Below are positions 60,964-63,363 of a DNA stretch of 64,000 nt, in pieces. This DNA is from Escherichia coli O157:H7. Its GTDB lineage: Bacteria > Pseudomonadota > Gammaproteobacteria > Enterobacterales > Enterobacteriaceae. Numbering within the stretch: the first letter of the stretch is position 1; the number at the start of each line of letters is the position of its first letter. The notes under the pieces are model-generated. The model worked only from the letters and a program-made list of their open reading frames with translations. It had not been told where the DNA came from and made no database searches. The position numbers and the translations under genes are program-made. Where the stretch lies: the NCBI RefSeq assembly GCF_013167455.1, contig NZ_CP038328.1, one strand, 5' to 3'.

Positions 60964-61164
60964 TGTTTCGCCGCCGACAAAAGGCCGGGACGTTAAATGT
61001 CAGAAATCAGGCTCACGGGGTAATTTAACGACAAAGCACGGAGTTGATGCTCCCCACAAGCCTGGAATAAAAAAGCCAGCATGTAGCTGGCAACAGAGGG
61101 CTAAGCAATATCAACTCAACAGCTGAAGACCCCCTGGCTGGGGTAGGTTGGAAGGCTACTCACC

Positions 61165-61205
61165 GTTCAGAAACAGAAAAGCCCAAGGCTTTAAACCTCG
61201 GGCTT
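61165..61205 (-). terminator. Rho-independent terminator between Q and the lysis genes (tR'-like)
   Basis: Minus strand AAGCCCGAGG-UUUAAAG-CCUUGGGCUU followed by UUUCUGUUUCUG. Confidence 0.55.
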
Positions 61206-61272
61206 GAATTTGGATTACTGCCAGTGCGTACAACATTGGCAAAATATCAGATTTACATAAAATATATGATTT

Positions 61273-61962
61273 TTAATCCAGTTTTGCAATATCTTGCTGT
61301 GAAAATGTGGTCTTTTGTTTTGAACGTGTTTTCGTTAAAAGCAATAAAGCTTGGCTATCAAGCTGTAGAAAAATGTGTTTCATTGCAACCCAGCGTTCAG
61401 TAAATGTCTCAGACCAGTTTTTTGATGTCACTCCCACCAGTGATGCCAGCTCCTGGTATTCATAGGTCTTACGCCCTGCCAGCTCGTTCTTCACATCCTG
61501 TGCCGCCAGCCAGATCAACTTCTTCAAACGTTCCAGTGTCTTACCTGCAATTTTCCTGGTACCCAACAGAGTCTTAAACTCGCTCCATGCCCACTGCGTT
61601 ATGGTGACCTGATGTTCCCAGCGAACACTTTCGCTGTAACTCCACAGCAACCACGCTTTCTGATGTTCTTCGAGAGACAGAACCGCGCGGCGCCATGACG
61701 AGGTTGAGAACTCAACCTGGCTGACCAGTGCAATGGATGAACCTTTTGCGTACGACTGCTTACCGGAAATCGGCGGATTATCCAGCGTAATCATCCTGCC
61801 AGTTACCTCATCCAGAATGCGCGGCTTCTTTCGTTTGTATGTACCAGTATCAAATTGTGCATGCTCCAGCCAGGCTTCAAGCTGTCCTTTCGTTGCTCCG
61901 CTCAAATCAGCGGTAGCCACAATGAGTTGCTCGCGGACATACTGTAAATATTGGGTATTCAT
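61273..61962 (-). CDS. Putative late-gene antiterminator Q (non-lambda type); assignment mainly positional
   Basis: 229-aa ORF between rusA/ylcG and the terminator-holin region; not similar to lambda Q as recalled. Confidence 0.5.
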   Translation of the reverse strand: MNTQYLQYVREQLIVATADLSGATKGQLEAWLEHAQFDTGTYKRKKPRILDEVTGRMITLDNPPISGKQSYAKGSSIALVSQVEFSTSSWRRAVLSLEEHQKAWLLWSYSESVRWEHQVTITQWAWSEFKTLLGTRKIAGKTLERLKKLIWLAAQDVKNELAGRKTYEYQELASLVGVTSKNWSETFTERWVAMKHIFLQLDSQALLLLTKTRSKQKTTFSQQDIAKLD

Positions 61963-62081
61963 GCGGCAGCTCCTTTCAGTGTTTTGGCGTAATTCTTCAG
62001 TATCCGGTAATCGGTCAAAACAGAACCAGGAAAACGATATAAGCGCAGGCGCATCCAGCGGTGGCGAAGACGTTCTGCCAT
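61959..62081 (-). CDS. Small protein YlcG-like (40 aa)
   Basis: Hand translation MAERLRHRWMRLRLYRFPGSVLTDYRILKNYAKTLKGAAA; stop overlaps Q start. Confidence 0.5.
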   Translation of the reverse strand: MAERLRHRWMRLRLYRFPGSVLTDYRILKNYAKTLKGAAA

Positions 62082-62095
62082 ATAAGACTCAAACA

Positions 62096-62458
62096 TCATT
62101 CATTCCCCAGTTCGGTGATGGTCAGCTCCAGCTTCCCACCTTTGGTAACGGGCATCTTCACAACACGGTAATCAACGACCTGAGCATCATCCAGCCAGAA
62201 ACCTGCTTTGGTGAGTGCGTCAAAAGCGGCTTTTTGCAGATTATCCAGGTCACGGCGACGGCGATCCGGCATGTGGCACTCAATACGGATTTTCACTGGC
62301 ATAGCCAGGCCGATATCCAGCATGGAGCCTTTGATGATTCGGGCGACGTTATCACGGTATGCCTGCCCTTCTGCGCTGATGTGCGTGCGCCCGCGATTAT
62401 GCCGGTAGTAGCGATTATTGCTCGGAGGCCAGGGTAATGTGATGCTGTAGGTATTCAC
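62096..62458 (-). CDS. rusA: Holliday junction resolvase RusA
   Basis: 120 aa [44 protein letters not shown]... Confidence 0.93.
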
Positions 62459-62745
62459 GCCTTAATAACCCCCTCTTTCAGCCAGATAACCTGTGTTCTC
62501 GCCATACCTTCCAGCGCGCATTCTTTTGCATATGCAGCATCGACAAAATGTGTGCGGCGGTCGATTTCGTCGTGGCAGGCAGAACATGCAATGGTGGCAA
62601 TCAAGTCTGGCGGTTTGGTACCGGTGCCGCACAATCCAGTCAGCCGGATATGTGCCAGTACAGACGTTTCAGGGTTGCCATTACATACGCCAGGGATTCT
62701 TACTTGGCATTCCCGACTACGCGCTGCTTTTCTCAAATCAGCCAT
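62455..62745 (-). CDS. DUF1364-family Cys-rich protein (YbcO-like, putative nuclease)
   Basis: ORF-track protein contains [42 protein letters not shown]...; start at the ATG with GGAGG 5 nt upstream. Confidence 0.75.
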
Positions 62746-62908
62746 GATTCCTCCTTGCTGCCAGTCGCAACCATTTTTTATCAACCAGGCTGGCGGTATA
62801 TCCGAGCAGTGTTGGTATTTCGGATGGCTTCAGCTCAGGTTTACGCTTACGACGATTTGGTACTTTGTAGATGTGTCCGTTCATGACACGAATAAGCGGT
62901 GTAGCCAT
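62738..62908 (-). CDS. ninE: NinE-like protein (56 aa)
   Basis: Hand translation [61 protein letters not shown] overlap with ybcN stop. Confidence 0.6.
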   Translation of the reverse strand: MATPLIRVMNGHIYKVPNRRKRKPELKPSEIPTLLGYTASLVDKKWLRLAARRNHG

Positions 62909-63363
62909 TACGCCTCCTGCTTGTCACGCAGCAGCTGGAACTCGCAGCTCTGTGGAATAGTCAGGTGGCAGCCAATATTCATCGCCCAGGCTTCAACCTT
63001 ACACAGGAAGACATACATCTCTCCGGTACCAAGATCGGAGGTATGGCGTAACGACTGGATAGTAGTGATTTCGCCGGTTACGACATCAACCAGGTCCTTG
63101 GTTTCATAACCGAGGTATGTGTGTTTGAGAGCATCTTTTACCCATGCTGAAGTAGCGAACGATTTCCCCCTGCTGATGAGGTATTCACTGATTTCGCTGT
63201 ACCACATGTGGCTGAGTGCATTCTGGGAAAGACTGCGTCTCTCGCGCCACGGTTTAAGCACCATGCGAAAGCATTTGCCGTCTTCCAGATAAGTCTGGAT
63301 CTGCTGACCGACAGCGGTGAAGTTACCGCGATGTAATTTGATGCCATCTTGTGGGAGGTTCAC
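62908..63363 (-). CDS. DUF1367-family protein (YbcN-like, DNA-binding)
   Basis: 151 aa [55 protein letters not shown]... Confidence 0.75.

Follow-up and report, generated by a model that had tools for sequence, protein, structure and literature searches.

A probable ninR-type gene block of the phage 82/DLP12 lineage in a prophage of Escherichia coli O157:H7, with a possible structured leader at its entry

What does a run of minus-strand genes, packed stop to start around a Holliday junction resolvase in Escherichia coli O157:H7, represent, are its smallest members genuine genes, and do the overlaps couple the translation of each gene to the next? An earlier note had described the run as a tightly overlapped nin-region module of six genes that includes RusA, and had read the overlaps as an indication of translational coupling. 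Here, we analyzed the locus within its window, i.e., the whole 64,000-nucleotide stretch of contig NZ_CP038328.1. All six genes are present, consecutive, on the minus strand and with intact reading frames, as follows.

63363..62908, minus strand: ybcN, 151 aa, GTG start, predicted recombination mediator of the Orf/NinB family
62908..62738, minus strand: ninE, 56 aa, ATG start
62745..62455, minus strand: ybcO, 96 aa, ATG start, DUF1364 putative nuclease
62458..62096, minus strand: rusA, 120 aa, GTG start, predicted Holliday junction resolvase
62099..61959, minus strand: ylcG, 46 aa, ATG start, small basic protein
61962..61273, minus strand: Q, 229 aa, ATG start, predicted late-gene antiterminator of the phage 82 type

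Stop and start codons overlap at every junction, by 1 nt between ybcN and ninE (TAATG), 8 nt between ninE and ybcO (ATGGCTGA), and 4 nt each between ybcO and rusA (GTGA), rusA and ylcG (ATGA), and ylcG and Q (ATGA). The two junction types named beforehand, TAATG and ATGA, both occur, whereas the GTGA type and the 8-nt overlap had gone unmentioned. The list of six also missed a seventh overlapped ORF, a RefSeq-annotated ylcH-like frame of 32 aa that joins ybcN by another 4-nt GTGA overlap. An SD-like motif lies 5-10 nt 5' of each start codon. The coordinates of Q fall outside the interval 61959-63363 that had been given for the module.

The O157:H7 chromosome very probably carries here the ninR-type delayed-early genes of a lambdoid prophage belonging to the phage 82/DLP12 lineage. 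Their layout is that of the lambdoid ninR "chain of interlinked genes": they share one strand, are linked throughout by stop/start overlaps and fill the space from the replication genes to Q. The closest counterpart is phage 82 (X92588.1), in which the order orf33-orf151-orf56-orf96-rus-orf45-Q matches gene for gene, the overlaps of 4, 1, 8, 4, 4 and 4 nt are the same, and DNA identity reaches 94.6% over 1.6 kb. Amino acid identities to phage 82 are 100% for NinE, 98.3% for Q, 97.9% for YbcO, 96.7% for RusA, 94.0% for YbcN and 93.5% for YlcG, and upstream both share a putative promoter and an inverted repeat. The two differ in the sequence type of ylcH/orf33 and of the second leader hairpin described below (phi80/CobraSix type; 71% amino acid identity). 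Unlike phage 82, the O157:H7 copy belongs to a resident prophage and adjoins ybcK. In the K-12 prophage DLP12 (ylcH-ybcN-ninE-ybcO-rusA-ylcG-quuD), the first six genes and their overlap lengths up to ylcG are likewise those of O157:H7; amino acid identity is 69% for ylcH and 85-98% for the other five. DLP12 differs at both ends: ybcL and ybcM stand between ybcK and ylcH, and the Q allele encodes the 127-aa QuuD, 85 nt past ylcG and without overlap, whereas O157:H7 carries the Q82 type. Both alleles are common among 80 IMG/VR relatives, 34 of which have the Q82 type with the 4-nt overlap and 42 the QuuD type with a gap.

The lambda ninR region (ninB-ninC-ninD-ninE-ninF-ninG/rap-ninH-ninI-Q) occupies the same place between replication genes and Q, also lies on one strand with an overlap at every junction, and likewise holds an Orf-family gene, NinE and a Holliday junction resolvase. 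Its description as "a chain of interlinked genes" is quoted in PMC7166090 from Kroger and Hobom 1982, and the same paper gives PR as the source of their early expression. Lambda differs in having Rap for RusA, NinH in the YlcG slot, no YbcO and a Q of another family. Directly 5' of ninB, lambda has the intrinsic terminator tR2, whereas the O157:H7 block is preceded by a promoter-like site, a leader with four hairpins and the ylcH ORF. The block DNA is 100% identical to that of many O157:H7 genomes, in which all seven ORFs are annotated (RefSeq/PGAP). The module is already known and ordinary, as RefSeq annotates every gene and the X92588.1 record dates from the 1990s; its rediscovery in itself matters little. 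Upstream of the block, a 63-aa ORF matches PHROG 2559, and a tblastn search of the phage collection with this ORF gave no match.

Family assignments bear out the nin-region reading and the presence of RusA. Except for ylcH, every gene of the block is under purifying selection, with pN/pS among close relatives of 0.12-0.16 for ybcN, ninE, ybcO and rusA and 0.43 for ylcG. By its profile matches, YbcN is a member of the Orf/NinB family, YbcN subgroup PRK09741: it matches NCBIfam NF007281 (272 bits) and PHROG 72 "NinB/Orf" (5.9e-51), scores just under the cut-off of the Pfam NinB model (22.5 versus 23.8 bits) and is 93-94% identical to K-12 YbcN and phage 82 orf151. K-12 YbcN has itself been placed in the Orf family by PSI-BLAST and biochemistry, and the lambda Orf fold was recognised in it by Phyre2 (PMC4118853). 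The O157:H7 protein may accordingly be described as a putative mediator that binds ssDNA and SSB; a PDB sequence search with it returned no matches. Of the two DUF labels proposed earlier, DUF1364 holds for YbcO, while DUF1367 does not hold for YbcN, which had no DUF1367 match at E<=0.01. In phages of Klebsiella and Erwinia, the place of ybcN is taken by DUF1367-annotated proteins, of which the full-length one from a Klebsiella phage has about 199 aa.

YbcO matches PF07102 (DUF1364) over its full length with 140.6 bits against a cut-off of 29.9, PDB entry 3G27 at 3.4e-62 and PHROG 131, which is labelled "HNH endonuclease", and is best regarded as a putative nuclease. A longer ORF with a TTG start at 62784 was not adopted; the ATG at 62745 agrees with RefSeq and with the length of the PDB protein. 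Over its full length, RusA passes Pfam PF05866 (77.4 bits, cut-off 22.8) and NCBIfam NF007305 (277 bits, cut-off 200) and matches PDB entries 1Q8R and 2H8C at about 1e-77 (1Q8R 5e-78). The residues reported as catalytic, D70, D72, K76 and D90/D91 (PMC1636454), are all present (D70, D72, K76, D90, D91). Since it shares 96% of its residues with the enzyme characterised from K-12, the protein would cleave DNA in a junction-specific manner.

The two smallest genes lie below usual ORF size cut-offs and had been recovered by hand translation. This raises the alternative that ninE and ylcG are chance, non-coding ORFs in spacers between real genes, with which the Pfam results alone would agree: YlcG has no Pfam match, and NinE reaches 23.6 bits against the lambda-based PF05322, just below the threshold of 25. 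The curated NCBIfam models, however, are passed by wide margins, NF007245 by NinE (141 bits, cut-off 88) and NF033498 by YlcG over residues 3-42 (80.5 bits, cut-off 30), and both proteins have PHROG matches (288 at 2e-35 and 2705, respectively). NinE is identical to phage 82 orf56 and lies directly 3' of an Orf/NinB-type gene, as expected for its family. NinE homologues were found by tblastn in 53 phage records, and YlcG homologues occur in 77; these are full-length, and frame and length persist even where identity drops to about 45-55%. For YlcG, at least 591 IMG/VR loci add to this count. In both genes, nonsynonymous substitution lags far behind synonymous substitution, with a pN/pS of 0.15 for ninE, dN/dS of 0.15-0.19 for ninE versus phi80 and CobraSix, and dN/dS of 0.14 for ylcG versus mEp237. 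A 2026 paper furthermore reports a stationary-phase rise of rusA-ylcG mRNA in K-12 (PMC12844172), with Hemm et al. 2008 among the sources that it cites for ylcG induction. The earlier note would have doubted the small ORFs had they lacked homologues and expression; with these homologues and this purifying selection, the chance-ORF explanation is so improbable that we consider it effectively refuted. By conservation of their coding sequence, NinE and YlcG are real protein-coding genes, and hand translation recovered two genuine small genes that ORF size cut-offs had missed. The size of 56 aa proposed for NinE was correct, whereas YlcG has 46 aa and not 40: the Met7 start is not conserved among homologues, while the ATG overlapping the upstream stop is. 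An AlphaFold model of YlcG shows a helical hairpin at moderate confidence (pLDDT 70). YlcG always follows a junction resolvase, whether RusA or Rap, and precedes Q.

The last gene of the chain matches PF06323 above its cut-off (316 bits) and the X92588.1 protein annotated as "phage 82 Q antiterminator"; a PDB sequence search with Q returned no matches. Promoter and terminator scans delimit a candidate site of Q action 3' of the gene:

61178..61289, minus strand: putative late promoter region, analogous to PR'-tR'

It comprises a promoter-like TTGCAA-17-TATATT at 61289..61261 and a terminator hairpin at 61205..61179. At this promoter just downstream of its own gene, Q would turn on transcription of the late (lysis, morphogenesis) genes. 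An Rfam match to isrJ at 61178-61257 stayed below the gathering score (30.4 versus 37 bits), and a search for tRNA genes downstream of Q found none.

Whether the block is ever used in this chromosome is a separate matter. K-12 rusA is quiescent unless an IS insertion brings a promoter (PMC1636454, PMC4118853), and by analogy little expression of the block would be expected in the lysogen. The replication gene O of the prophage, located outside the window and seen in an identical genome, is truncated, so the element may never run a lytic programme. The HusR boxes that have been reported 5' of rusA in K-12 recur here, each with one mismatch. These observations agree with the view that the block is a silent relic in a defective prophage, currently without function for this host and persisting only since it is young or reshuffled with active phages. 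Against it stand the seven intact frames and the occurrence of the same block in the viable phages phage 82, 4A7 and PhiR34_1. We regard relic status as a serious possibility, though short of probable; it is compatible with the assignment as a nin block, as it concerns expression in the lysogen and not the identity of the module.

The overlaps themselves are, judged by their persistence across phages, conserved architecture and not chance. Short overlaps of similar size also occur in Klebsiella, Enterobacter, Salmonella and Erwinia phages, and the rusA/ylcG overlap is 4 nt in all 78 scorable IMG/VR relatives. In distant phages the overlaps stay at 1-11 nt despite swaps of neighbours, with YlcG following RusA or Rap and preceding at least four types of Q. 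Translational coupling along the block is plausible, and we infer the following scheme. A single polycistronic early transcript would carry all block genes, and the overlaps of 1-8 nt would allow terminating ribosomes to reinitiate on the next gene; such reinitiation would hold the products in fixed ratios and bring ribosomes down to Q.

Coupling need not be of the same kind at each junction. The predicted ribosome binding sites of ylcG and Q are open (probability unpaired 0.69-0.73), whereas ylcH and ybcN have closed sites (0.25-0.31). For this reason, obligatory coupling is best supported at the first junction only, from ylcH to ybcN, where the folding models make it most likely; at ylcG and Q, with their predicted unstructured sites, it need not be obligatory. 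Independent initiation is possible since each gene has its own SD, and the overlaps could even reflect genome compaction only, with every gene initiating at its own SD and coupling having no regulatory role. The good SD motif before every start fits this explanation, as do the binding sites of ninE, ybcO, rusA, ylcG and Q, which are 44-73% unpaired and no more structured than shuffled sequences, and the overlaps that are also common elsewhere in this prophage, among its head, tail and lysis genes. It is harder to reconcile with overlaps that remain at 1-11 nt in distant phages where the neighbours come from different families, and with the SD and start of ybcN, which are buried in a hairpin that pairs the SD in 96% of 49 alleles, a burial that speaks for ribosome-dependent opening. 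We therefore consider compaction alone rather unlikely. Under the coupling scheme, a ribosome translating ylcH would melt the hairpin over the ybcN SD and GUG, and downstream of this first junction, where binding sites are open, coupling would probably be just facilitating.

This hairpin is the last of four in a candidate leader 5' of ybcN, whose predicted elements are:

63515..63543, minus strand: promoter-like site TTGATT-17-CATAAT, from a promoter scan
63362..63511, minus strand: putative structured leader RNA with four hairpins, from folding and covariation
63511..63483, minus strand: leader hairpin 1, at the predicted 5' end
63477..63454, minus strand: leader hairpin 2, with the ylcH SD in the loop and the ylcH AUG in the stem
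63429..63402, minus strand: leader hairpin 3, with a GAAA loop
63389..63362, minus strand: leader hairpin 4, concealing the ybcN SD and GUG
63458..63360, minus strand: ylcH-like ORF, 32 aa, hypothetical protein in RefSeq

A palindrome, TTGAT-N8-ATCAA, spans the -35 element and spacer of the promoter-like site. The X92588.1 record annotates a putative -35/-10 at the equivalent position, the site is conserved in phi80, CobraSix and others, and homology among 39 alleles starts abruptly at the -35. The leader folds with a z-score of -4.56. In hairpins 1-3, 96.3% of cells are paired and 21 of 30 pairs show changes on both sides, a level of covariation that none of 500 shuffles reached; hairpin 2 occurs in several fully compensated sequence types. 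Between hairpins 1 and 2 lies an invariant CUUCUGCGC, and a U run follows hairpin 3 in many alleles. Hairpin 4 has a minimum free energy of -15.0 kcal/mol versus -7.5 in shuffles. No Rfam family matches the leader, and the literature on prophage sRNAs yielded nothing at the nin leader, the known sRNAs lying near PR' moron sites. Two readings of hairpin 1 were rejected. Against a DNA operator stands the variant seen most often, a U-G wobble that keeps RNA pairing and loses DNA symmetry; against a strong intrinsic terminator, hairpin 1 has a sense tail of UUCUGCGC, and only the antisense strand passes the terminator scan.

The ylcH-like ORF, annotated as orf33 in phage 82 and ylcH in K-12, keeps its frame and not its peptide. 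The ORF with its 4-nt overlap is retained in 89 of 101 leaders, while its pN/pS of 0.85-1.03 and the spread of variable sites over the three codon positions (12/12/14) indicate that the peptide is without amino acid constraint. Probably it acts as a leader or coupling ORF and does not encode a functional peptide; a literature search for ylcH returned irrelevant matches only. We tentatively propose, without rating it as the probable outcome, that nin blocks of the phage 82/DLP12/phi80 type open with their own promoter-like site and a structured leader RNA of about 150 nt that is not a known RNA family, and that ylcH translation opens the chain. Translation of the 31-33 codons itself, and not the peptide, would then open the first gene. 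The leader could also be an attenuator (hairpin 3 with the U run), a put-like processivity element or a 5' stabiliser, or could merely be a conserved sequence at a recombination boundary.

What the locus could add to the biology of lambdoid phages is modest and concerns its entry: many of them carry, in front of their recombination genes, a leader that covaries strongly and contains an ORF of non-conserved sequence. If true, gating by this leader would offer an explanation for the control of access to the nin operon and, in the end, of the dosage of Q. It could also be the reason for the quiescence of rusA in K-12.

The nin-region module comprises seven consecutive ORFs on the minus strand (window 61273-63458), and all seven starts are preceded by a Shine-Dalgarno (SD)-like motif at 5-10 nt:

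63458..63360, minus strand: ylcH-like, 32 aa, ATG start; 4-nt overlap (GTGA) with ybcN
63363..62908, minus strand: ybcN, 151 aa, GTG start; 1-nt overlap (TAATG) with ninE
62908..62738, minus strand: ninE, 56 aa, ATG start; 8-nt overlap (ATGGCTGA) with ybcO
62745..62455, minus strand: ybcO, 96 aa, ATG start; 4-nt overlap (GTGA) with rusA
62458..62096, minus strand: rusA, 120 aa, GTG start; 4-nt overlap (ATGA) with ylcG
62099..61959, minus strand: ylcG, 46 aa, ATG start; 4-nt overlap (ATGA) with Q
61962..61273, minus strand: Q, 229 aa, ATG start; overlaps no further ORF

The earlier note had described six overlapped minus-strand genes, which is correct because their ORFs, overlaps and SD-like motifs are found in the window; the seventh, ylcH-like ORF and two junction types had been overlooked. 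Apart from three small errors, and with translational coupling as an inference, that interpretation is essentially right. The ATG at 62745 is the ybcO start in RefSeq, in phage 82 (GenBank X92588.1) and in the PDB construct. Mechanical extension of this ORF reaches a TTG at 62784 (window 62455-62784, 109 aa), and the record of Klebsiella phage GZ7 annotates the long ybcO form along with a truncated ybcN.

The module is known and annotated, and the finding is a rediscovery because counterparts exist in phage 82, K-12 DLP12 and lambda ninR as well as in RefSeq annotation. Many E. coli O157:H7 chromosomes match the 2.6 kb around it at 100% identity, and 3924 of 5426 complete E. coli genomes carry some version. 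In an identical genome, RefSeq annotates the seven ORFs, in order, as hypothetical protein, YbcN family, NinE family, DUF1364, RusA, YlcG family and antitermination protein Q. The module's neighbours there are ybcK, emrE, ren and P at one end and, at the other, holin, lysozyme, Rz, bor and a complete lambda-like head and tail module. Colinearity with this genome extends over window 24207-64000, at 99.95% identity. IS3-family copies lie at window 5796-7108 and 768-2077; the former, in the chromosomal ycg region, is an extra insertion relative to strain FORC_044, by which the first 24 kb are shifted. CP-933X is the name given to the O157:H7 prophage with a 93%-identical YbcN (PMC4118853).

Phage 82 shares 94.6% DNA identity over 1.6 kb, with the same gene order and overlaps, and its record is titled 'Bacteriophage 82 orf33, orf151, orf56, orf96, rus, orf45, and Q genes'. 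Amino acid identity to phage 82 is 100% for NinE, 98.3% for Q, 97.9% for YbcO, 96.7% for RusA, 94.0% for YbcN, 93.5% for YlcG and 71% for YlcH. In K-12 DLP12, genes and junctions agree with this module from ylcH through ylcG, but the Q there is a different one, quuD (127 aa), set off by an 85-nt gap; this DLP12 version is also carried by viable phages such as 4A7. The lambda ninR genes likewise overlap at all junctions, and were termed a 'chain of interlinked genes' by Kroger and Hobom 1982, as cited in PMC7166090.

The larger genes are readily identified. The assignment of RusA to the module is borne out by Pfam and NCBIfam scores well over the cut-offs, by matches to PDB 1Q8R/2H8C at about 1e-77, and by the presence of all five residues D70, D72, K76, D90 and D91 (listed in PMC1636454). 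YbcO matches PF07102 (DUF1364, 'putative nuclease') and PDB 3G27, and Q matches PF06323 with 316 bits. YbcN had been taken for a DUF1367 protein, which fails: NCBIfam PRK09741 and PHROG 72 'NinB/Orf' place it in NinB/Orf, with a Pfam NinB score slightly under threshold. Curtis et al. (PMC4118853) showed that YbcN of K-12 is a diverged member of the Orf family, with binding to ssDNA and to SSB. DUF1367 proteins fill the ybcN slot in some Klebsiella and Erwinia phages, which probably explains the slip.

As judged from sequence comparison, ninE and ylcG are genes. Both pass their NCBIfam models: NF007245 gives NinE 141 bits (cut-off 88), and NF033498 gives YlcG 80.5 bits (cut-off 30). The homology check proposed for these small ORFs returned tblastn matches in 53 (NinE) and 77 (YlcG) isolated phage genomes from Escherichia, Klebsiella, Enterobacter, Cronobacter, Salmonella and Erwinia, down to about 45-55% identity at unchanged length; IMG/VR holds at least 591 YlcG loci. 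The dN/dS ratio is far below 1, at 0.15-0.19 for ninE (versus CobraSix and phi80) and 0.14 for ylcG (versus mEp237). In a set of 80 close relatives, ninE has a pN/pS of 0.15 and ylcG of 0.43, compared with 0.12-0.16 for the larger genes. YlcG starts at the ATG overlapping the upstream stop and is 46 aa long, not 40 aa from Met7 as previously read, a residue that is V, T, L, I or F in homologues. It is modelled with moderate confidence as a helical hairpin. In K-12, the rusA-ylcG mRNA is reported to be HusR-activated in stationary phase (2026 study, PMC12844172); Hemm et al. 2008 is among the sources which that study cites for ylcG induction. Each of the two HusR boxes described for K-12 rusA has a counterpart with one mismatch, at window 62691-62706 and 62340-62355; the mismatch in the first is G to A at a consensus position.

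Comparison of window 61959-62099 with fetched phage loci (L004, L009-L013) placed ylcG in every phage directly 3' of a Holliday junction resolvase, either RusA or the unrelated Rap/NinG, and directly 5' of Q, of which at least four types occur; in one case a PAPS reductase gene lies between ylcG and Q. The resolvase/ylcG overlap is 4 nt throughout, as is that with the next gene where the two abut (SEN34: 11 nt). Among 80 IMG/VR relatives, RusA with a 4-nt overlap lies upstream in all 78 that could be scored, and downstream are Q82-type genes with a 4-nt overlap (34) or QuuD-type genes with a gap (42). Because the downstream Q alternates between these types, the ylcG/Q junction is a mosaic boundary.

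In lambda, PR drives early expression of the ninR genes (PMC7166090). By analogy, the block would form part of the delayed-early rightward transcript, and Q, its last gene, would activate the late promoter directly downstream. Downstream of Q lie a promoter-like TTGCAA-17-TATATT (61289..61261, minus strand), a strong terminator hairpin (61205..61179, minus strand) and a second terminator (61091..61075). A sub-threshold Rfam isrJ match (30.4 bits versus 37) covers exactly the short promoter-to-terminator transcript (window 61178-61289), which suggests that the isrJ-like RNA is a PR'-tR' leader of a Q82-type late operon. The rusA gene of K-12 is described as 'normally quiescent', except where IS2 or IS10 provides a promoter (PMC1636454; PMC4118853). 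The identical O157 genome has a truncated O gene, and in the lysogen the block is probably silent.

Translational coupling via the overlaps can reasonably be inferred because these are strictly conserved though neighbours are otherwise reshuffled. Predicted ribosome-binding sites (RBS) are mostly paired for ylcH and ybcN (P unpaired 0.25-0.31), intermediate for ninE, ybcO and rusA (0.4-0.6) and open for ylcG and Q (0.69-0.73), with the Q region less structured than shuffles. Obligatory coupling is therefore best supported, in these folding models, at the first junction only.

Upstream of this junction lies a conserved, structured leader:

63362-63543, minus strand: leader and promoter-like site, four hairpins 5' of ylcH/ybcN
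63511..63483, minus strand: hairpin 1, conserved loop
between hairpins 1 and 2, minus strand: invariant CUUCUGCGC
63477..63454, minus strand: hairpin 2, GGGA loop carries the ylcH SD, 3' arm the ylcH start codon
63429..63402, minus strand: hairpin 3, GAAA loop
63389..63362, minus strand: hairpin 4, pairs the ybcN SD and GUG

Homology of 39 aligned alleles begins abruptly at a -35-like TTGATT, overlapped by a palindrome (TTGAT-N8-ATCAA) and followed 17 nt further on by CATAAT; the X92588.1 record already marks these sites as putative promoter and 'possible regulator-binding site'. The stretch between ybcK and the leader holds a 63-aa ORF (window 63554-63745, minus strand) with a full-length match to PHROG 2559 (E 4e-51); RefSeq leaves it unannotated in the identical genome. 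Only 5 of 94 fetched loci have this ORF, K-12 and phage 82 lack it, and tblastn against the phage collection gave no match.

The leader region folds with z = -4.56. Hairpin 2 occurs in several sequence types, every one fully compensated, and hairpin 1 of phi80 has an entirely different stem with an unchanged loop. A covariance model of hairpins 1-3 found the element 90 times in 100 sources, including K-12, phage 82, phi80, CobraSix and a Klebsiella phage; overall, it is found in K-12 DLP12, phage 82, phi80, CobraSix, Klebsiella GZ7 and more than 120 IMG/VR contigs. Covariation is strong: in the alignment, whose fitting to the model favours structure, 96.3% of cells are paired and 21 of 30 pairs show changes on both sides, pairing matched by 0 of 500 shuffles and reaching 27-33% in slid controls. 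For hairpin 4, 49 distinct alleles were folded: in 96% of them at least 80% of the ybcN SD is paired, and the MFE is -15.0 versus -7.5 kcal/mol for shuffles. An Rfam search with the leader returned no matching family, and lambda differs in having terminator tR2 at this place.

The ylcH ORF, annotated in RefSeq and K-12, is by its substitution pattern without amino-acid constraint (pN/pS 0.85-1.03; 12/12/14 variable sites by codon position). Its C-terminus tracks the SD of whichever gene comes next, and the copy here belongs to the phi80/CobraSix type in the N-terminal half and to the phage 82 type in the C-terminal part. The records of phi80 and CobraSix do not annotate their corresponding 31-aa ORF. 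Where classifiable, the gene after the leader is Orf-family, of YbcN or lambda NinB type (86 of 115 loci); in 89 of 101 cases it shares a 4-nt overlap with the 31-33-codon ORF. In our tentative reading, the leader is a translational gate and ylcH a leader ORF or coupling ORF, a proposal on which the odds lean slightly against us. The leader might instead be an attenuator, a put-like element or a 5' stabiliser, or else a recombination boundary sequence. The leader may also act as such a boundary, since paired copies flank inserted genes in two viral contigs, L114 (6850-6980 and 10953-11083) and L147 (446-572 and 1923-2054). The second L114 copy is directly 5' of a Q-like gene, with the nin genes missing. 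Within this otherwise known module, experimental work might be worthwhile on the leader alone.
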